IMG/VR virus record: IMGVR_UViG_2061766007_002057
Reading direction: 5' to 3' (one strand)
Origin: an uncultured virus (IMG/VR IMGVR_UViG_2061766007_002057)
Lineage: Duplodnaviria; Heunggongvirae; Uroviricota; Caudoviricetes
DNA length: 22,815 bases
Shown: positions 1-11,426 of the stretch, in pieces
Position numbering within the stretch: position 1 is the first letter of the stretch
How the letters are laid out: each line of letters opens with the position of its first letter
Notes under the pieces: generated by a model
What the model was told of the DNA's origin: nothing
The model's database searches: none
Seen by the model: the letters and a program-made list of their open reading frames with translations, nothing else
Made by a program: the position numbers and the translations under genes

Positions 1-16
1 AATACACACAAACCAG

Positions 17-56
17 AAGCGGGAGACTGTGGGTTCAAGTCCCACTCGTAGCTCCA
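17..56 (+). tRNA. 3' exon of intron-split tRNA-Thr(UGU); the preceding nt 1-16 (ending in G16) are probably the 3' end of a group I intron
   Basis: AA-GCGGG-AGACT-GTGGG TTCAAGT CCCAC-TCGTAGC-T-CCA. Acceptor strand TCGTAGC pairs perfectly with GCTACGA at 5044-5050, and GCGGG pairs with CCCGC at 5071-5075. Confidence 0.85.
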
Positions 57-61
57 TTTTA

Positions 62-112
62 AGTGGCATACTAACATAACCCAATTATCCTTCCTACAAA
101 TAGTGTGCCACT
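62..112 (+). ncRNA. Isolated 12-bp hairpin with a 27-nt G-free loop between two tRNAs; possible small RNA
   Basis: AGTGGCATACTA (62-73) pairs with TAGTGTGCCACT (101-112), one G-U; loop ACATAACCCAATTATCCTTCCTACAAA. Confidence 0.4.
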
Positions 113-129
113 CAGAATGGGAATTTTAC

Positions 130-210
130 AGCGGGTGGGTGGTGGTTGGGACAAGTAAATCACGCCTGGTTTATAATCAGGAGAACTACGTTCGACACGT
201 AGACCCGCTA
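130..210 (+). tRNA. Atypical tRNA with UAU anticodon (Ile-AUA type) and enlarged D-arm
   Basis: Acceptor AGCGGGT/ACCCGCT; D-stem GTGGT/ATCAC with 15-nt loop; anticodon arm CCTGG-TT TAT AA-TCAGG; T-arm CTACG-TTCGACA-CGTAG; no encoded CCA. Confidence 0.7.
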
Positions 211-230
211 TTTTATTACAAGGAGTTGAT

Positions 231-482
231 ATGGCTAACGAAGCATGGTATGTAAAATTGTGGAACGCAGTAAAAGCTGTATTTGAAGCGGTCGTTAATT
301 TCTTTGTGTGTTTAGTAAAGAAATTCTTCTCGATCTTCAACTCATGGCATAAACTCGCCACAATCGCATTAGCAGTGTTTACGTGGGACTGGTTAAACTT
401 ATCCGTTGCTGATAAAATCGGTACGTTTATCTTGTTCAGTGTATTAGCATTGTTGGTGTACGATATTGCAAAAGATAAATAA
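231..482 (+). CDS. Small membrane protein with two predicted hydrophobic segments
   Basis: 83-aa ORF with SD AAGGAG upstream; hydrophobic stretches LATIALAVFTW and IGTFILFSVLALLVY. Confidence 0.75.
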   Translation: MANEAWYVKLWNAVKAVFEAVVNFFVCLVKKFFSIFNSWHKLATIALAVFTWDWLNLSVADKIGTFILFSVLALLVYDIAKDK

Positions 483-486
483 ACAC

Positions 487-515
487 TTGACACTTATTTA
501 ATTTTGTAGTATAAT
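487..515 (+). promoter_or_regulatory. Consensus sigma70-type promoter
   Basis: TTGACA (487-492), 17-nt spacer, TATAAT (510-515). Confidence 0.85.
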
Positions 516-540
516 TTGTTTGTTGTTATTGTGTTGTTTT

Positions 541-602
541 GGGGAGACGCTAAACGACGTACTGAACCTCCTTATAAATAAATCAGTACGGTCTCCCCTC
601 CA
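541..602 (+). ncRNA. Putative small hairpin RNA with an acceptor-stem-like end (T-CCA) and an anti-SD loop
   Basis: GGGGAGAC (541-548)/GTCTCCCC (591-598) followed by TCCA; inner stem CGTACTGA (558-565)/TCAGTACG (583-590); loop ACCTCCTTATAAATAAA; directly downstream of a consensus promoter. Confidence 0.55.
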
Positions 603-609
603 GATTTGA

Positions 610-845
610 CAATTTGTGTGCTTAAGTGAGAGAGTGAAGACTTGTTATGGACTACTTCATCTCGGTATAGTACAGATTGACTGGATGATATATAGGACGT
701 GAGCCGACCACAAATACCATAACTAACTATATATCGTTGATTGTAGGGGCCGCGGATACTCCTGGTCAGATGTAATAAACTATACCTGTCTACATATACG
801 GGACGTATATTGGGGCCACACAATACGATTTCGCGCCGGTAGCTA
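610..845 (+). ncRNA. Putative structured non-coding RNA of unknown family
   Basis: No credible + strand ORF; nested complementary pairs TTGTGTG/CACACAA, GGTATAGT/ACTATACC, TGACTGG/CTGGTCA, GATATATAG/CTATATATC. Confidence 0.4.
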
Positions 846-859
846 AATAAGAAGGTTTT

Positions 860-1369
860 ATGGAAAGACACATTAAGTTTATTAACATTATTTTTGAGAA
901 CTGTGAGCATGTACAAGTGCCCGGTGATGCTATTTATCATTGTGAACTTGTTGCAGACAGCAGATTCATTGATACGTATGAAGAAATGGAAGAAGCACGC
1001 AGTGTGTCAATTTCCATTATACTCAATAAACTTAAGAAAGAAGATAGCGAACGTTTAAGCAAATGCGCTGACATTACGCATATTCAATTTGTGTATATTT
1101 CCGGAGAAGACAAATACGTGCAAGTACCTATACCGATATACTTTCACTACTGGTATCAAAATCCGTATCAGGACAGCCATAAGTGGTATAATGAATCACT
1201 AGGGGACATACTGGACCTTGACTTCGAAAAGTACTGGTCAATACTCAGTACGTGGCAAGCGGTGAAAGACTATGTTGGTATGTGCATGCACAACTTCCCA
1301 AACGGTATGCGAACTTTGTTTGGTGGATACTGGGCTACTTTCAAAAGACATTTCAAAAGTAGACATTGA
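860..1369 (+). CDS. Hypothetical phage protein
   Basis: 169-aa ORF preceded by AGAAGG. Confidence 0.75.
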   Translation: MERHIKFINIIFENCEHVQVPGDAIYHCELVADSRFIDTYEEMEEARSVSISIILNKLKKEDSERLSKCADITHIQFVYISGEDKYVQVPIPIYFHYWYQNPYQDSHKWYNESLGDILDLDFEKYWSILSTWQAVKDYVGMCMHNFPNGMRTLFGGYWATFKRHFKSRH

Positions 1370-1401
1370 AAGTAGACATTGGTAGTAAAAAAGTAGACAT
1401 T
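1356..1401 (+). repeat. Three exact 12-bp direct repeats AAAGTAGACATT
   Basis: Copies at 1356-1367, 1369-1380 and 1390-1401. Confidence 0.8.
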
Positions 1402-1574
1402 AATTTATTTATAAGTTATTTAGTTCTTTGAAAATTTACATGTAAACAAAATAGAACNNNNNNNNNNNNNNNNNNNNNNNNNNNNNNNNNNNNNNNNNNN
1501 NNNNNNNNNNNNNNNNNNNNNNNNNNNNNNNNNNNNNNNNNNNNNNNNNNNNNNTTCTGTGGCTCTTTGTTTAT

Positions 1575-2436
1575 ATGTACTCATGCAGATACTGTAGTAA
1601 AGAATTTGCAAAATCAAATTTGTTAGCAAGTCACGTGGTAGCAGCGCATAAAAAGCCGGAAAAGCATTACATATGTTGTAAGTATTGCGGCAAAAAACTT
1701 AATGTAAAACACCGATTAACTAGGAAGCATATTGAAGTCTGCCGAAAGAAGCATGAACCTTATATATGCAAAGTGTGTGGAAAACTTGTAACTACGTTAT
1801 ACGGTACTGGAAAATTTTGTAGTATAATATGTCGAAATACGAGAAAACATAGCGAGGCTACAAAGCAAAAACTGCGGGATGCTGTTAAACGTAATGGATT
1901 AACAGGGGCTGTGTTAATAGATAGTACAACTAAGCATTTAGAAGCTATTCGTTACTATGTAAAGCACCCGAAATTTTGTAAGATTTGTGGCGCAAGAATA
2001 AGTTATAAACGCCGTTATAGCAGTGAGACATGCGGAAGCCATGAATGTAAGTACAAAAACTGCGGTGGGTTTAGACATGAATCCAGAAAGACTAAAAGTA
2101 AGTCTGGATATTACAANNNNNNNNNNNNNNNNNNNNNNNNNNNNNNCTTTTGTTATTTTTTGCATTGATCATAACATACCTTTCTCTAGAAATGTAACTG
2201 GTTTTCAGTATTTATATAATGGAAAATATCATAAGTTTTATCCAGATTTTATTATCAATAATCGGATGTACATAGAAATAAAGGGTATGCGAGACCCTAT
2301 AAACGATGCAAAACAAAAATCAGTTCCGCACCCTATAAAGTTTCTGTATTATGCGGACTTGCAAAATTGTTTTGAATATTGTAGAGTAAAGTATAAGGCT
2401 AATAGAAATAAATTATATGTTCTTTACGATAAATAA
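1575..2436 (+). CDS. Zn-finger array plus PD-(D/E)xK nuclease, probably a free-standing homing endonuclease; frame broken by an N-gap
   Basis: N-terminal C2H2 finger (CRYC...HVVAAH) and several CxxC pairs; after the gap, KFYPDFIINNRMYIEIKG gives the PD...ExK motif. Confidence 0.75.
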
Positions 2437-2444
2437 TTTTAAGT

Positions 2445-2521
2445 GGGGCGCTAGTGTAACTGGCTAACACGCCTGTCTGTCGAACAGGAAATTACGGAAT
2501 CGTACTCCGTGCGCCCCGCCA
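2445..2521 (+). tRNA. tRNA-Asp(GUC)
   Basis: Acceptor GGGGCGC/GCGCCCC, G73 and CCA; anticodon arm CCTGT-CT GTC GA-ACAGG; T-arm ACGGA/TCCGT with non-canonical loop ATCGTAC. Confidence 0.9.
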
Positions 2522-2524
2522 GGT

Positions 2525-3325
2525 TTCACAGTAGTCCTATCTGGATGAAGTTATGTGAACGCTGGAGGGAGCCACCAGCGTTATAAAAGAGCTCCTGAGT
2601 GGCATAAAATATGACAATGGACGGAACGACTCCAGCCTAAATAAAGTTCCTGCCACTTCCCGTCTGCTACTGGTGGNNNNNNNNNNNNNNGGTTAAACTA
2701 CTCCCTGTGTAGTTTCCCCGCTACCTTAAACAAACGGGGACGTCAAACTGAGGCGTGAAGTCAGGACGGGACCCGAACGTGCCTAGAGGCTTAACCGGGT
2801 GACGTTATCTGTAAAGTCGTTAAACCAGACTGTGCCACCACGGGCAGAGATTAGTACGTGGGGAGTATGGTTAAGTTGACTGACGGGCGCAACCCGAAGA
2901 CAACACTATGCGAGGCTGATAGTACCGGCAGGGAAATTGGCCGAAACTTATAGTAAGTACCGAGCTGAAGGGAAAGCTATAAACGTAGTGCTCGCTTACC
3001 TGGGTTCTTAGCGAGTCTTTATACTCCACATGCTGTACCGGGTAAAAACTAGAATTGATTATTCTAACCCCAGGACCTAGTGGGATATATAGTACCTTCA
3101 GTGTGGCCTAATCAGCCCAAACGCGGAGCCTTATTATGCGGGATTCGCCGAAACTGAAGGGAGGGCCGACTTGCTTGGCAGGTCAGGAGCAGGGATGACC
3201 TTGTAGCCGGAGTCCTCTTAAACCCGTCCTAGGAGTACAGGTAGTGCGGTAGGTGCGACCGGAGGCGTAGTAAGCACGTAACGGTCTTGACCATGATGGT
3301 AATACCCGCTTACGCGGTAGCATCT
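2525..3325 (+). ncRNA. Large (~800 nt) ornate non-coding RNA; GOLLD-like candidate
   Basis: ORF-free, richer in GC than the flanks, immediately after a tRNA. Many helices: AACGCTGG/CCAGCGTT, GTGGCA/TGCCAC, TCCCCG/CGGGGA, CCACG/CGTGG, CTCGCT/AGCGAG, CCTTCAGT/ACTGAAGG, GACTTGC/GCAGGTC, CCGC-TTAC-GCGG. Size and phage tRNA-cluster context fit GOLLD, but the family is not verified. Confidence 0.65.
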
Positions 3326-3406
3326 CTTTTATGGAGAGTGTGTGGGTAAAGCAGGCTATATCTGGTAAATCCCACTGGTCACCTACCTCTTTAGATTTTG
3401 CGTTAT

Positions 3407-4354
3407 ATGTATACTTGTAAATATTGTGGAGCTAAATTCAGTAGGGCAACTGATATTGCTAACCATGTTCGTGGTACACACTGTGATATTCGCTGGGATA
3501 AAAAACCATGTAAAGATTGTGGTAAGCTAATTTCAGTTAACCCTGCAGCACAGCATGCACATGCTGCTGGGTGTAAAGCAAAAAAGGTTCCTTATATTTG
3601 CAAAGGGTGTGGTAAAAAAGTATTAATTTATTATGGTTCCGGTAAATATTGTTCAAAAGAATGTGCAAATAGAAGAGCTCAGACTAAAGAGTTATTATTA
3701 AAAAAGAAAAACAAAGCTATAGAGTATCTTGGATTATCTTTCTATATGGACAAGTTTTTACGATGCTTGTATAGCTTACTTAAAAAAAGAACTTGTATTG
3801 AAAATAATAAAAGTAGTACAAACACTACAAGTAATACATATACGTGCGTTGGGNNNNNNNNNNNNNNNNNNNNNNNNNNNNNNNNNNNNNNNNTGTAATA
3901 GATGCCGAGATTTGAAGTTATACACTGATTTTAAGTACGGGAATATAACAATTAGTCATGTGGTTGCAAAACGATTACTTGAAAAATATGAAGGGCATAA
4001 GTGTTCCATTTGCGGAATTTCAACCTGGAATAATAGGTATTTGCCAATGANNNNNNNNNNNNNNNNNNNNNNNNNNNNNNNNNNNNNNNNNNNNNNNNNN
4101 NNNNNNNNNNNNNNNNNNNNNNNTTTTATTTGTATGAAAAGAAATGGAATGACACACGCAGAAGCCGGTAAACTCGGTGCAATTGCGGGTAAGAATATAC
4201 ATAATTGGTTGCGTAAACAAGAAAGAATTGTTGCGTATTATAAAAACCCGTTAAGGTGCAAGTATTGTAACAGCGTNNNNNNNNNNCGCAATTGCCGACA
4301 TATAAAAGTAAGAATAGAAAAAGTGATAGAAAGAAAAGATTTTATTATAATTAG
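3407..4354 (+). CDS. Zn-finger array plus HNH endonuclease 'A', reconstructed from 3407-3853, 3894-4050 and 4287-4354; interleaved with another ORF
   Basis: C2H2 and CxxC N-terminus; KYEGHKCSICGISTWNNRYLPM is a typical pre-HNH segment; 4289-4354 reads QLPTYKSKNRK...*, a typical post-HNH tail. The HNH core would fall in the gap. Confidence 0.6.
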
Positions 4355-5009
4355 GAGAGATGGCCGAGTGGTTTAAGGCGTCAGTCTTGTTTACTCGAGT
4401 GCACTATAGAAATATAGCTGTAGAACGTTTCAAAGTCGGTGAAGCCCAGACCGGGTAATACCGAGCCAAGCCGGAAACGNNNNNNNNNNGTCGTATCACA
4501 AATTCTGCAATTCTAGTTGTGCATGTAAATACAACAATGCGTTACGTGCTTCAAAAAGAAAGTTAGTTTGTTATACAGTTGGTAATTTACCGAAGGATTA
4601 TAACAAAAAAGAGATAAAACCAATTTCAAAATGTTTATTTTGTGAGTCGGAATTGCGTCACGGGAAGAAGTATTGCTCTATCCAATGTGAGGGACACTAC
4701 AGGAAGCAAAATACGGATCAAAAAATAGAATCCGGTGAAGTTGTGTATCACAGACACCTTAGAAGGTACTTACTGGAAAAGCACAAAATATGTATGAATC
4801 CAAGCTGCTGCTGGGACTGGAGTAAAAACTGTAATGTACCACTTGAGTTACACCATTTAGATGGTAACTCAAATAATAATAATGTGCTGTCAAATGTTAT
4901 TTTACTTTGCCCTAACTGCCACGCGTTAACTGATACATATAAGGCAAAGAATGCGGGAAAGGGTCGTGCGTGGCGAAGAAAACGTTACCATGATGGTAAA
5001 AGTTATTGA
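4134..5009 (+). CDS. HNH endonuclease 'B', reconstructed from 4134-4276 and 4491-5009
   Basis: LELHHLDGNSNNNNVLSNVILLCPNCH is the HNH motif. The frame is open from 4491 (SYHKFCNSSCACKYNN), which continues naturally from YYKNPLRCKYCNS ending near 4276. Confidence 0.7.
4354..4388 (+). tRNA. 5' exon of tRNA-Ser(UGA), intron after U34
   Basis: GGAGAGA-TG-GCCGAGTGGTTTAAGGC-G-TCAGT-CT-T; joined to 5275-5326 it gives TCAGT-CT TGA AA-ACTGA and acceptor GGAGAGA/TCTCTCC. Confidence 0.88.
4389..4479 (+). mobile_element. Group I intron of tRNA-Ser, 5' part
   Basis: P1 CTT|G..CGAG puts a U-G pair at the splice site; P3 strand ACGTTTC; P4-P6 core AAAGTCGGTGAA...GGTAATACCGAGCCAAG; ends at a 10-N gap. Confidence 0.8.
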
Positions 5010-5035
5010 CAATATAAGTTCCATTTTTATATAAT
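5006..5035 (+). promoter_or_regulatory. Sigma70-type promoter upstream of tRNA-Thr
   Basis: TTGACA (5006-5011), 18-nt spacer, TATAAT (5030-5035); tRNA starts at 5044. Confidence 0.7.
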
Positions 5036-5043
5036 AGTTATAC

Positions 5044-5080
5044 GCTACGATAGCTTAATTTGGTGAAGCACCCGCCTTGT
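5044..5080 (+). tRNA. 5' exon of tRNA-Thr(UGU), intron after position 36
   Basis: GCTACGA-TA-GCTT AATTTGGTG AAGC-A-CCCGC-CT-TGT; completes a cloverleaf with 17-56. Confidence 0.85.
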
Positions 5081-5274
5081 ACAAAGTGCAACTTTATCCA
5101 GTGATGGGTATTGAAAATACTATCAAAGTCGGTGAAGCCCAGACCGGGTAATACCGAGCCAAGCCGGAAACGGAAGGTGTAGAGACTTGACGGAACGTAC
5201 CTAAACAGTACTGCTGTAGGTAAAGGTAAAGTCCAGACCACAAATAGTGTAGCGGTGGAAACCGTAGTGGTACG
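5081..5274 (+). mobile_element. Group I intron sequence, chimeric as assembled: 5' part from the Thr intron, 3' part (5173-5274) from the Ser intron
   Basis: P1 TTGT|AC-AAA-GTGCAA with a U-G pair; R element GTAGAGACT; S element AAGGTAAAGTCC; terminal G5274. The P3 3' strand GGAACGT (5192-5198) pairs with ACGTTTC (4425-4431), not with local TACTATC (5118-5124). Confidence 0.82.
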
Positions 5275-5326
5275 GAAAACTGATGTGGGGGTAACTCCAC
5301 CGTGGGTTCGAATCCCACTCTCTCCG
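5275..5326 (+). tRNA. 3' exon of tRNA-Ser(UGA)
   Basis: GA AA-ACTGA, long variable arm GTGGGG-GTAA-CTCCAC, T-arm GTGGG-TTCGAAT-CCCAC, TCTCTCC, G73. Confidence 0.88.
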
Positions 5327-5334
5327 ATTAATTT

Positions 5335-5478
5335 ATGTTAACATTGTTTATTGGTTTTGTTTGTGGTATTGCTTTCAACGTTATAGCTGACGTTATTGCA
5401 AATTTGATTACGAACAGAATATTAAGGCGTAAAAAGAAACATGGGGAATCTTTTAAGTCAAACAAGCATCGTACTTAA
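5335..5478 (+). CDS. Small single-pass membrane peptide (47 aa, below ORF-track cutoff)
   Basis: MLTLFIGFVCGIAFNVIADVIANLITNRILRRKKKHGESFKSNKHRT: hydrophobic N-terminus with a basic tail. Confidence 0.45.
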   Translation: MLTLFIGFVCGIAFNVIADVIANLITNRILRRKKKHGESFKSNKHRT

Positions 5479-5641
5479 TAGGCTTATTACAGGAGAAAAA
5501 AATAAGCCCCTATGTTATACGGCATACGACCGGAAAAGCATATGGGCTGTTATTTTTGACAGCTTTATGTTTTGGGACAAACAGCACTGTAGAAAAGTTT
5601 GGTTGAGATCAAGGATTTATGAGCGAAACAAAAAAGGATAA
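5441..5641 (+). CDS. Hypothetical protein
   Basis: 66-aa ORF overlapping its neighbours in an operon-like run. Confidence 0.55.
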   Translation: MGNLLSQTSIVLNRLITGEKNKPLCYTAYDRKSIWAVIFDSFMFWDKQHCRKVWLRSRIYERNKKG

Positions 5642-5894
5642 TAACTTTGCGGAGAAAGTGAAGAAGATTTGTTCTGATATTGCTGACCTTCTTATCAAGA
5701 AAAACAAAAGTTACGGAAACTCAGCGTTAGAGCCTATAAATTGCTTTTACAAAGGTGACGCAAGCACTGCAATTAAAGTTCGTATAGACGATAAATTGTC
5801 TAGAATCATGCGTGGTCATGAATTTCAAGGCGATGATACAATAGACGATTTAATAGGGTACTTGGTTCTTTACAAAGTAAGCAAAATGAAATGA
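5619..5894 (+). CDS. DUF1599 / nucleotide-modification-associated domain 1-like protein (all-alpha NTP pyrophosphatase fold)
   Basis: KKNKSYGNS...VRIDDKLSRI...DDTIDDLIGYLVL pattern. Confidence 0.75.
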   Translation: MSETKKDNNFAEKVKKICSDIADLLIKKNKSYGNSALEPINCFYKGDASTAIKVRIDDKLSRIMRGHEFQGDDTIDDLIGYLVLYKVSKMK

Positions 5895-5904
5895 GGCAAT
5901 ACAT

Positions 5905-6444
5905 ATGTTTTGTTTAACTCAGGCAGATAGGGAATACTACTACAAAAACAAAGAGCTTTTTACGCACATTGTGTCTATAGTTTGTCCTGACGACGATATT
6001 ACTCCACTTCATGAAAAGCACATAGTAGTAAAGTTTTGGGACGTTGACCATGCAATGACAAACAAGTTTAGACACTATAATGTTGTCGACAGCGAGACAG
6101 TACTTAATCCGTTGTGGTACGTAAAAAATTGGTATTGTCTTTCGGCGCAAGATAATGAACAAATGAATTTACTTGTACACTGCGATGCCGGTATTTCAAG
6201 AAGTTCTGCTGTTTCTCTTGGAATACTGTGTGATCTTAGCAATCTCATTTTTAGAAATGGGGATGACGTTAATATGTATTTTCGTGAGTGGATGGCTGCA
6301 CGCAAGGAGTGGTGTGTAAACCATGTGTCTGACCATAGTACAGGTCTTAAAAGATTTATTGAAGGAAGACTCAACCCAGGTGTAAAACCTAATCAGGCAG
6401 TACTAAAACATTACAGAGAACATTTATCTTATTTTCCATGGTGA
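5905..6444 (+). CDS. Cys-based (tyrosine/dual-specificity-type) phosphatase
   Basis: LLVHCDAGISRSSA = HCx5R(S); D-loop FWDVD; C-terminal PN motif. Confidence 0.85.
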   Translation: MFCLTQADREYYYKNKELFTHIVSIVCPDDDITPLHEKHIVVKFWDVDHAMTNKFRHYNVVDSETVLNPLWYVKNWYCLSAQDNEQMNLLVHCDAGISRSSAVSLGILCDLSNLIFRNGDDVNMYFREWMAARKEWCVNHVSDHSTGLKRFIEGRLNPGVKPNQAVLKHYREHLSYFPW

Positions 6445-6746: not shown

Positions 6747-7308
6747 ATCGTTAACAACTTTAATAGTTGACTTGTCGTTATGCAAGGATAAGGCTAAAAA
6801 GATTGAGGAAGAAATAAAGGACACGTTAACTAACTGGATAAATGAAGTTGATTTTTCACAATTCAAATTAAACCCGGAAGTTCATTTTGGATTATTGCCT
6901 GTAGCTATTGGTGGTAAAGCACACGATTGGTCTGTGCTATATCATGAAACACATGAAAAGCAAATGCTCGATCCATACTCGCTAACTATAAATTTTTACG
7001 GAAACGACGTTGAGGCGTCGTGCTTTTATCACGGTAATTTGATTACAGCAAAAATCCCGCTCGGTGTACTTGCATCTTTTAACTTGTTTTCAGAATGGGT
7101 TTACGAACAGGAAAAGAACTACAAGGCAAATCTTTACTATATTGAGCAGAGAATTAAAAGTAAAGAAGAGGCGTCAAAAAGTGAAGAATTTGCAAAATGG
7201 GTTGAACAGGGACGAAAATATCTTAAAGACGGTCTTATAGAAGATTTTAGATTGTCAGAAACAGCTAGAGTTTCCACTCAGGAGAACGGCTATGCGAAGC
7301 TTCCATGA
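6736..7308 (+). CDS. Hypothetical phage protein
   Basis: 190-aa ORF with strong SD GGGAGG. Confidence 0.8.
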   Translation: MEDKSLTTLIVDLSLCKDKAKKIEEEIKDTLTNWINEVDFSQFKLNPEVHFGLLPVAIGGKAHDWSVLYHETHEKQMLDPYSLTINFYGNDVEASCFYHGNLITAKIPLGVLASFNLFSEWVYEQEKNYKANLYYIEQRIKSKEEASKSEEFAKWVEQGRKYLKDGLIEDFRLSETARVSTQENGYAKLP

Positions 7309-7629: not shown

Positions 7630-7845
7630 AGTCCACGATACGGCTCCCAATTCGTGTTCCTCGAAGGGTTAAGAGCAGGAAACGCAGGGCAACGCTATCC
7701 CTTAGCTGACTCCCTCAAAGTACAAGCGGGACAGTGGGCTGGAATCCGGGCAACAGCCGAAACTAAATGGCCGGACCATTNNNNNNNNNNNNNNNNNNNN
7801 NNNNNNNNNNNNNNNNNNNNGGCGGATCGTCACCGCCACGAGGTG
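7630..7845 (+). ncRNA. Putative structured ncRNA upstream of tRNA-Tyr
   Basis: GC-rich intergenic stretch with AAGGG/CCCTT, TCCC/GGGA, TCCGG/CCGGA, CGGCT/AGCCG, GGCGG/CCGCC and CCTCG/CGAGG; 40-nt gap inside. Confidence 0.4.
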
Positions 7846-7853
7846 TTATTTTA

Positions 7854-7938
7854 CCCGGCATAAACCCGTAAGTAGTAGCGGCAAAGTCTGTAAAACTTTA
7901 CACATAGTGTTCACAAGGTGCAAGTCCTTGGGCCGGGA
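7854..7938 (+). tRNA. Atypical tRNA-Tyr(GUA)
   Basis: Anticodon arm AAAGT-CT GTA AA-ACTTT; variable hairpin ACAC-ATA-GTGT; T-arm CAAGG-TGCAAGT-CCTTG; acceptor CCCGGC/GCCGGG plus an A-G mismatch; A73. Confidence 0.75.
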
Positions 7939-7944
7939 GGTTTT

Positions 7945-10189: not shown

Positions 10190-10229
10190 NNNNNNNNNNN
10201 NNNNNNNNNNNNNNNNNNNNNNNNNNNNN

Positions 10230-10322
10230 NNNCCCATAGTTTAATGGTGAAACACCCGGCTTATACCCGGCAAACACCGTCTTGATAAGGCGGCAATGTA
10301 GGTTCGAGTCCTACTGGGGCTA
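10230..10322 (+). tRNA. tRNA-like gene with UAU anticodon and a very long variable arm; first ~3 nt in the gap
   Basis: CCCA-TA-GTTT AATGGTG AAAC-A-C CCGG-CT TAT AC-CCGG C; extra arm CCGTCTT-GAT-AAGGCGG; T-arm GTAGG-TTCGAGT-CCTAC; TGGGGCT-A. Confidence 0.8.
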
Positions 10323-10332
10323 CTTATTTTTC

Positions 10333-10682
10333 AGGCATCCCTTGCTTGAGTGGGACAAGGCAGTACAAGCGTAATGCTTGTTCATGTTAACGTTGGCCAC
10401 AATGCGGATAATTGTGGAAGCTAGGGCCCTCCTTCCCGAGTATGTTTGGAGTTTTATTCATTTGTCCAAGCAGAAAAAACAGATAGCGCATCTCTGTAGC
10501 GAAACGATGGCAAACTCAGTACAACCGGGATGGTAACCCGGGAACAGCGGGTGGCTCACAACCCTGACTGATAGTGAGTTGCAGTACTTTGTTATTCATA
10601 GTTATAACCAGACTCCGGGGCATAATACCTTATGTAGTGGCTTGCTGCTACCACAGGAGAGTCGAAAAGCAGCACAGATTCG
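10333..10682 (+). ncRNA. Second large structured ncRNA, at least 350 nt, running into a ~436-nt gap
   Basis: No credible ORF, follows a tRNA; helices CAAGC/GCTTG, CCACAAT/ATTGTGG, TTGGA/TCCAA, CCGGG/CCCGG, AACTCA/TGAGTT, GACTCC/GGAGAGTC, GTAGTGG/CTGCTAC. Confidence 0.6.
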
Positions 10683-11177
10683 NNNNNNNNNNNNNNNNNN
10701 NNNNNNNNNNNNNNNNNNNNNNNNNNNNNNNNNNNNNNNNNNNNNNNNNNNNNNNNNNNNNNNNNNNNNNNNNNNNNNNNNNNNNNNNNNNNNNNNNNNN
10801 NNNNNNNNNNNNNNNNNNNNNNNNNNNNNNNNNNNNNNNNNNNNNNNNNNNNNNNNNNNNNNNNNNNNNNNNNNNNNNNNNNNNNNNNNNNNNNNNNNNN
10901 NNNNNNNNNNNNNNNNNNNNNNNNNNNNNNNNNNNNNNNNNNNNNNNNNNNNNNNNNNNNNNNNNNNNNNNNNNNNNNNNNNNNNNNNNNNNNNNNNNNN
11001 NNNNNNNNNNNNNNNNNNNNNNNNNNNNNNNNNNNNNNNNNNNNNNNNNNNNNNNNNNNNNNNNNNNNNNNNNNNNNNNNNNNNNNNNNNNNNNNNNNNN
11101 NNNNNNNNNNNNNNNNNATATAATACAGGCCGGAGACGGAATTATAATAAGCTGTTATAGGAATAAATGGAGATAAA

Positions 11178-11426
11178 ATGGCATACGTAAAAGTGTTTTA
11201 TAAAGATTCGTCTGAAGAAGGAAGACTTGCAGCAGTAGAAAGCGCTATAAAGTCTTTNNNNNNNNNNNNNNNNNNNNNNNNNNNNNNNNNNNNTATAAAA
11301 GATGTTCGTAAGCGGGAAGAGTATAATCCACCGTCTGTGGTAAAAAGAATAAAGCACAAAGAAGCAGTAAAAAGAAACAAAAAAGCTGAAGCGAAAAGAA
11401 GAAGATTTAACAAAGATTACAAGTAG
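11178..11426 (+). CDS. rpsU: Phage-encoded 30S ribosomal protein bS21
   Basis: VESAIKSF...IKDVRKREEYNPPSVVKRIKHKEAVKR matches the bS21 pattern (E.AL..F...R.RE.Y.KPS..R..K...A.KR); basic, 82 aa; SD GGAG. Confidence 0.85.
   Translation: MAYVKVFYKDSSEEGRLAAVESAIKSXXXXXXXXXXXXXIKDVRKREEYNPPSVVKRIKHKEAVKRNKKAEAKRRRFNKDYK

Follow-up and report, generated by a model that had tools for sequence, protein, structure and literature searches.

Bacterial RNase P cleaves hairpin RNAs that have no T loop, and those described include the P4 CI RNA, the P1/P7 C4 RNA and the phi80-induced M3 RNA (PMC5499578). Loops that copy the 3′ tail of 16S rRNA are known from NfeR1, which silences mRNAs via its anti-Shine-Dalgarno (anti-SD) loops (PMC10746234), and from the OLE RNA, whose anti-SD mimic is bound by the ribosomal protein bS21 (PMC12054373). 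In Bacteroidia such as Flavobacterium, bS21 is described as forming, together with bS18 and bS6, a 30S-subunit pocket in which the anti-SD is occluded, and these hosts ignore SD sequences. Among the allo-tRNAs, UAU is the most frequent anticodon, in genes thought to be non-translating, and U73 is a main identity element for cysteinyl-tRNA synthetase (CysRS) (PMC5389517). Bacterial Y RNAs (YrlA/YrlB) carry the motif GNCGAAN0-1G near the 5′ end, together with T- and D-like loops (PMC4201824). Among openly licensed papers, none was found in print that describes an RNA joining a tRNA-type end with an anti-SD loop.

Here we describe a hairpin with both of these features. It lies in a 22,815-nt window (the whole stretch of DNA analysed), which is part of a large uncultured rumen phage; the sequencing runs containing the region were mostly ruminant gut samples. 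The hairpin is a real, uncatalogued and nearly orphan RNA gene.

Results

Sequence, fold and setting of the hairpin

The window contains HNH genes, helicases, a primase and a RecA-like gene, and the hairpin is positioned within the tRNA array of the phage. The features considered below are (window coordinates, strand where assigned):

1-57: incomplete tRNA at the window start (Rfam)
134-210, 2445-2521 and 10230-10323: tRNA genes (ARAGORN)
231-482, +: small hydrophobic open reading frame (ORF) common to related phages, which served to locate their loci
487-515, +: putative sigma-70-type promoter TTGACA-17-TATAAT, 12 of 12 consensus letters
516-540, +: U-rich unstructured leader, with a predicted transcription start near 522 and a U at position -1 of the hairpin
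541-602, +: the whole element, a 62-nt CCA-ended hairpin RNA (folding, topology scan)
541-548, +: 5′ strand of the 8-bp acceptor-like stem; its first seven letters are those of clostridial SelC* tRNA-Cys
549-557, +: 9-nt single-stranded bulge (folding)
558-565, +: 5′ strand of the inner 8-bp stem, with a weak likeness to the 3′ strand of the D arm in some (8/4) tRNA-Ser genes
566-582, +: G-free open loop of 17 nt, with the anti-SD word at 566-574 and the anticodon-like heptamer CUUAUAA at 571-577
583-598, +: the 3′ strands of the two stems, which stack with no gap between them
599-602, +: discriminator-like U and encoded CCA
605-615, +: boxA-like antitermination word directly 3′ of the CCA (pattern match)
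11178-11426, +: bS21 gene (Pfam and structure matches), given as context and without a shown tie to the hairpin

The outer stem pairs 541-548 with 591-598 and the inner stem 558-565 with 583-590, and 16 of 16 pairs are Watson-Crick. Folding of 541-602 gave -23.3 kcal/mol (z -5.1; 0 of 200 shuffles equally stable), a z value that is inflated because the boundaries were picked from the fold itself; with flanks (520-610) the value was -2.1, and in longer folding contexts the CCA paired with downstream sequence. The strict topology of two 8-bp stems and NCCA was present once in the window and in none of 40 dinucleotide shuffles, both strands being scanned. With the bulge on the 5′ side and the 3′ strands stacked, the shape is that of a tRNA top without the middle. 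No stand-out pairing partner of the bulge was seen within the window. A first, sequence-only reading of this DNA had described a 62-nt fold of two 8-bp stems, a 9-nt bulge, a G-free loop and a terminal T-CCA, preceded by a perfect promoter; folding and the topology scan confirmed the former and the consensus match the latter.

The promoter ranked first among 10 promoter-like sites in a scan of positions 1-3000. Its type is ordinary in the array, with similar sites at 5006 and 9590 and also before tRNA genes of the related locus L160, and the layout of the hairpin resembles that of the array's tRNA genes, which have the same type of promoter and a U preceding G+1. A search around the element revealed no terminator. 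Words that we take to be boxA are found on the sense strand at 605-615 and 1427-1437 and, in L160, at 4298 and 6828, before RNA genes; in L160 the word also lies 3′ of promoters. The counts were two in the window and three in L160 (one within an ORF), with 0.06-0.08 expected per strand and a search pattern that was defined after the word had been noticed. These words suggest a possible rRNA-type antitermination of the tRNA array. As there is no terminator nearby and a boxA-like word at 605, the hairpin RNA would have to be excised from a longer transcript. Judged from its sequence, the phage employs sigma-70-type promoters and SD sites, 11 of 27 starts pairing with the anti-SD 9-mer at ≤ -8 kcal/mol (one start was placed one base off and two had unread bases upstream; all were kept).

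Rfam covariance models, which the first reading had proposed as a check, gave no family match for 541-602 at any threshold tried, and ARAGORN made no call there. Compared with tRNA (RF00005), the hairpin has an acceptor stem with NCCA, of 8 bp instead of 7; T arm, D arm and a paired anticodon stem are absent, the flanks of the heptamer being unpaired. The features of tmRNA are a G3-U70 pair, a T arm and a tag frame. The third pair of the hairpin is G-C, there is no T arm, and no tmRNA was called by ARAGORN or Rfam; a two-piece tmRNA with the neighbouring RNA was also rejected, as the co-fold (-78.0 kcal/mol) brought no gain over the separate folds (-77.2 kcal/mol). A Y RNA was discarded since GNCGAAN0-1G is missing from the hairpin sequence. 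No Ro60 gene was present among the 36 ORFs of the window, which begins 540 bases upstream of the hairpin; L160 has one. By the features tested, the hairpin stands outside the tRNA, tmRNA, Y RNA, cuckoo and C4/CI families.

A tRNA-like end and its possible origin

We tentatively favour the reading that the hairpin is a stand-alone tRNA-end mimic, excised by RNase P, in which the anti-SD word is incidental. To judge by sequence, its source was probably a tRNA whose acceptor had 8 bp and which was then shortened. From the observed sequence, fold and context we infer transcription, processing, origin and function as follows. Host sigma-70 polymerase would transcribe from the promoter through the hairpin, RNase P would cleave at 541, and 3′ trimming would halt at the encoded CCA. 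Such processing would release a stable 62-nt RNA and define the following RNA on its 5′ side. The hairpin would then serve as a tRNA top, that is, as a mark for processing and stability. Enzymes that recognise tRNA ends or anticodon loops might also take it as a substrate or be decoyed by it, and U73 together with the SelC*-type stem would point toward CysRS. The anti-SD word would be a by-product of an unzipped anticodon arm. An RNase P-processed minihelix had been suggested before, and the U-rich leader, the G at +1, the helix and the NCCA agree with it; the cleavage itself is plausible by analogy with the T-loop-less substrates. The tRNA-end reading has against it that the anti-SD match is rare (~1e-4) and wholly exposed. 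Moreover, the strand opposite the word, its partner strand in a tRNA, is A-rich, which would fit selection for display.

The first reading had missed a tRNA-derived explanation of loop and acceptor. Supplementary SelC* and allo-tRNA sequences (PMC5389517) were matched by eye, without alignment. In the SelC* sheet, 15 of 54 rows begin with the first seven letters of the hairpin, and 14 of these 15 also end in its last 11 letters; two allo-tRNA(UAU) rows begin with the same seven letters. The loop has a 5+7+5 architecture in which CUUAUAA is central (nt 31-37 from the 5′ end). In L160, the first promoter 3′ of the shared ORF drives an (8/4) tRNA-Ser(UGA), which agrees with the hairpin in 10 of 17 flank letters when both are set in the anticodon register. 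For 26 other tRNAs the agreement was at most 6 of 17, and the 10/17 level was reached at 3 of 1163 heptamer-like sites. Four of 13 (8/4) tRNA-Ser genes have ACCGCCT where the hairpin has ACCTCCT, and the ACCGCCU of tRNA-Ser is one change from the anti-SD word.

At the same time, the interior likeness to (8/4) tRNA-Ser gave p values from 0.001 to 0.47, depending on method and member set. A 4-member profile yielded p 0.001 (0.013-0.20 on leave-one-out), and of 14 control profiles built from ordinary tRNAs none gave less than p 0.09. The 13-member profile gave p 0.04 and the 9 new members alone p 0.08; for this set, 3 of 12 fetched loci without a full 8-bp CCA-ended tRNA were omitted. A position matrix found the same register at p 0.02-0.07, a signal that vanished (p 0.3-0.47) once the 7-nt loop was masked. 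When the L160 tRNA-Ser was aligned locally, p was 0.12, and globally two ordinary tRNAs aligned equally well. None of the 4-bp T stem, long V arm and long D stem of (8/4) tRNA-Ser is present in the hairpin. Derivation from a tRNA with an 8-bp acceptor may thus be taken as a lead with fragile statistics. It matters because, from a tRNA-Ser, the anti-SD word could be reached in few steps with no selection for it, or else selection would have had a starting point to use.

The anti-Shine-Dalgarno word in the loop

The unpaired loop word is ACCUCCUUA, and ACCTCCTTA at 566-574 is the sole exact match in the window (0.08 expected). It was 97-100% unpaired across three folding contexts, in line with the earlier claim that an anti-SD word opens the G-free loop. 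By chance, a loop of this kind would contain the 9-mer with a probability of 6.5e-5 when the loop letters are permuted and of 1.6e-4 for G-free random loops; for its first 8 letters the values are 1.2e-4 and 5.9e-4. The last letter fits what we take to be an E. coli-type 16S end, which may not be that of the phage host. A p value near 1e-4 is weakened because the finding was selected from a very large scan, and the striking part of the hairpin, as a matter of sequence, rests on this one 9-letter word. On the minus strand, TAAGGAGGT has no ATG, GTG or TTG at ribosome-binding-site distance, as the first reading had stated, and a minus-strand gene using this complementary SD was ruled out. Pairing of the hairpin's 5′ strand with its own loop, as SD with anti-SD, was not favoured in folding.

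It is possible, although on the whole rather unlikely, that the hairpin is an antisense anti-SD RNA on a tRNA-like chassis, whose loop, once RNase P had processed the RNA, would pair with SDs of host or phage mRNAs and damp translation, and whose tRNA end would serve for stability alone, as in the P4 CI and P1 C4 RNAs. The low p value and the full exposure of the word agree with such a role, as does the predicted duplex of the loop with a perfect SD (-13.1 kcal/mol, a value attained by one in 5000 shuffled loops), and two of the three CCTCC copies on the sense strand of the window lie in the hairpin. Pairing with SDs as in the cuckoo RNAs is possible in silico, and the anti-SD loops of NfeR1 (PMC10746234) and the P4 CI/P1 C4 RNAs (PMC5499578) are precedents. 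However, within the window the loop paired best with SDs of the phage itself (-12.0 to -12.9 kcal/mol), no single one being outstanding, so that a general SD trap would hit the phage; nor did a cognate antisense target stand out in these 22.8 kb, which are one part of the genome. In the collections searched, no diverged homologue was found that would show the word to be retained. There is one loop only, compared with 2-4 in cuckoo RNAs (PMC4615179), and an origin from tRNA-Ser would leave the word one or two changes away. The SD trap that had been proposed from the sequence has, by analogy, a precedent in NfeR1.

The bS21 gene of the phage

Since the bS21 ORF of the window is partly unread, its score stayed under the Pfam cut-off. 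A database protein with the same sequence everywhere else reached 52 bits against a cut-off of 27 and matched 29 solved S21 chains, so the claimed phage gene is real. Only two close relatives of the phage bS21 were found. The gene lies 10.6 kb from the hairpin, and co-presence is their sole link.

We consider it unlikely that the hairpin is a decoy for a reader of the 16S 3′ tail, which could be an anti-SD-cutting host nuclease toxin or the bS21 of host or phage. Toxins of this kind exist (PMC12274833, PMC12620021), the OLE RNA provides a bS21-bound mimic, and the phage encodes bS21. Yet OLE, as described in PMC12054373, offers an SD/anti-SD duplex and requires flanks, whereas the word of the hairpin lies in a single strand, and with the 3′ strand of the acceptor blocked in silico the 5′ strand did not move onto the loop. 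In addition, the bS21 gene is distant and is a kind present in many unrelated phages (PMC9723584). For a decoy of bS21, as suggested earlier, the OLE precedent holds as an analogy, and the open loop departs from it. The wider suggestion of a hairpin-bS21 system that reprograms translation is unsupported: the two lie 10.6 kb apart, OLE shows a duplex, and the hosts with anti-SD occlusion ignore SDs, in contrast to this phage with its 11 SD-paired starts.

Relatives and homologue searches

A contig of a near-identical phage (run X3) spans 50-631 and differs there by four letters and one insertion. All three listed changes are synonymous and lie within ORF 231-482, and none is listed in the hairpin. 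In the same contig, 632-1358 is replaced by 265 other letters; the hairpin, unchanged while this stretch was swapped, is thus retained apart from its downstream neighbour. The contig is so close that it is uninformative on covariation. Three related loci (L160-L162), found by their homologues of ORF 231-482 in a metagenome scan, also lie within tRNA arrays, and the hairpin was not found in their 20 kb, 16 kb and 1 kb of sequence. A single-sequence covariance model run on the window and these loci gave a best non-self match of E 0.26.

The sequence-only reading had named a lack of homologues as evidence against it, and no diverged homologue was found in the viral contigs, genome contigs, phages and plasmids searched. 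In viral contigs, there was none among 9 loci with the acceptor pattern, none among 5 with the tight anti-SD pattern and, for the loose anti-SD pattern (at least 118 loci), none among the matches listed; the bulge word was seen at 31 loci, none with the hairpin context. Queries of these contigs with ORF 231-482, DnaB or the neighbouring RNA found one weak locus or none. A pattern scan of genome contigs (51 loci) gave the same negative result, and a topology scan of 233 loci (553 kb) gave 35 loose matches, 0 with CCTCC in the loop. No match was obtained by blastn against phages, and two 19-base chance matches against plasmids. Contigs of two of the three RNA runs listed (X8 and X9) do not cover 541-602, which as contigs cannot show absence.

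It is doubtful that there is no discrete working RNA here and that the hairpin is a lineage-specific leader structure or a decaying relic before an exchangeable RNA at ~629-850. Its absence from the three related loci is consistent with this explanation, as are the downstream pairing of the CCA in long folds and the RNA contigs that include the neighbour and leave out the hairpin, within what contigs can tell. However, a full set of Watson-Crick pairs in an AT-rich genome is unlike decay, the hairpin was retained when the neighbour was swapped, and a leader has no need of a correctly placed, encoded CCA.

Other structured RNAs in the arrays

The neighbour at 629-850 is a structured RNA in its own right that probably contains pseudoknots; its helices were recognised by eye, and plain folding gave z 0.3. 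RNA-run contigs from two different studies cover 629-804, and it is this RNA that the near-identical phage replaces. Long hairpins starting at a tRNA CCA were seen at 54-119 and at L160 7201-7262, there behind tRNA-Thr (z -5.7 and -6.4); between the two phages, conservation extends to the stem and not to the loop. The loop of 54-119 is likewise G-free and C-rich, a character not kept in the homologue, which we count in favour of the tRNA-end reading; kinship of the G-free loops 74-100 and 566-582 was rejected (p 0.52). The stretch 2530-3390 behind tRNA-Asp, ~850 non-coding bases that are GC-richer and have no Rfam match, may contain further structured RNAs.

Several tRNA genes were also unusual. 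The tRNA-Ile at 10230-10323 apparently has tandem anticodon arms, UAU and GAU (by eye), and the tRNA-Ile(UAU) at 134-210 has an odd D region and, in the near-identical contig, one extra T beside the anticodon loop. At 4354-5330 and 7650-7940, tRNA halves seem to be split by group I-like introns with HNH genes, and an intron stretch is duplicated near 4435 and 5125 (both by eye). In L160, an (8/4) tRNA-Ser at 10673-10762 was overlooked by ARAGORN and Rfam, and directly behind the shared ORF (10194-10465, by eye) lie two genes that resemble tRNAs, have a T arm and are enlarged in the middle. Unannotated (8/4) tRNA-Ser genes were present in phage records at L219-L221, L223-L224, L226-L229 and L231-L233. 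L160 also encodes a TROVE (Ro60-like) protein (4694-6328), with a YrlA-like RNA 700 bases downstream of the gene (7012-7081; 27 bits, under the gathering score).

Discussion

A combined scheme appears improbable: a tRNA gene with an 8-bp acceptor, turned riboregulator, would have lost its V and T arms, unzipped its anticodon stem and retuned it to a copy of the 16S tail, and retained the tRNA end for processing and stability. Its RNA would trap SDs, or else bS21 or a defence nuclease as the protein that reads the anti-SD, tilting initiation during infection. If the anti-SD loop works, the phage would possess an RNA uniting tRNA-type processing with mimicry of the ribosome's 3′ tail. The 62-nt RNA is a cheap test object for SD-dependent repression, bS21 binding and protection from anti-SD nucleases. 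If the loop is incidental, as in the tRNA-end reading that we favour, the locus would add a further CCA-ended mini-hairpin to those of phage tRNA arrays, and would mainly hint that such hairpins derive from shortened tRNA genes, in this case a gene whose acceptor has 8 bp.

Among the described systems, P4 CI, P1/P7 C4 and the phi80-induced M3 RNA (PMC5499578) are like the hairpin in being small phage RNAs whose ends are paired and which lack a T loop but have a plausible RNase P site and a single-stranded bulge and loop, and the geometry of its 5′ end would fit RNase P cleavage as in P4 CI and P1 C4. Unlike these, it has no match to the Rfam family models and lies in a lytic-type tRNA array and not in an immunity region. 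With the cuckoo/alpha-r14 sRNAs such as NfeR1 (PMC4615179, PMC10746234) it shares an anti-SD word in a hairpin loop. Cuckoo RNAs, as these papers describe them, have 2-4 adjacent hairpins, each with CCUCCUCCC, whereas the phage hairpin has a single loop with ACCUCCUUA, a tRNA-like end and a phage origin instead of an alphaproteobacterial one. The P6 element of OLE (PMC12054373) is similar as an anti-SD mimic in a non-ribosomal RNA with bS21 available, but OLE is ~600 nt long and holds its word in a duplex.

The (8/4) allo-tRNAs and tRNA-Ser share with the hairpin an 8-bp acceptor, the U73 of the G73-or-U73 criterion and the CCA, and the CUUAUAA heptamer is as in allo-tRNA(UAU) (PMC5389517). 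In contrast to them, the hairpin is without D stem, anticodon stem, V arm and T arm, has 62 instead of ~90 nt and cannot decode. SelC* tRNA-Cys, from the same source, resembles it in acceptor sequence and U73, the first seven pairs being those of clostridial SelC* (by eye), but carries a GCA or UCA anticodon in a cloverleaf that the hairpin does not have. The T4 RNAC and RNAD (PMC9697503), described as of unknown function, are likewise small RNA genes that do not decode and lie within the tRNA array of a phage; compared with these, the present hairpin has a promoter of its own, a 9-nt bulge and an anti-SD word in a 17-nt loop.
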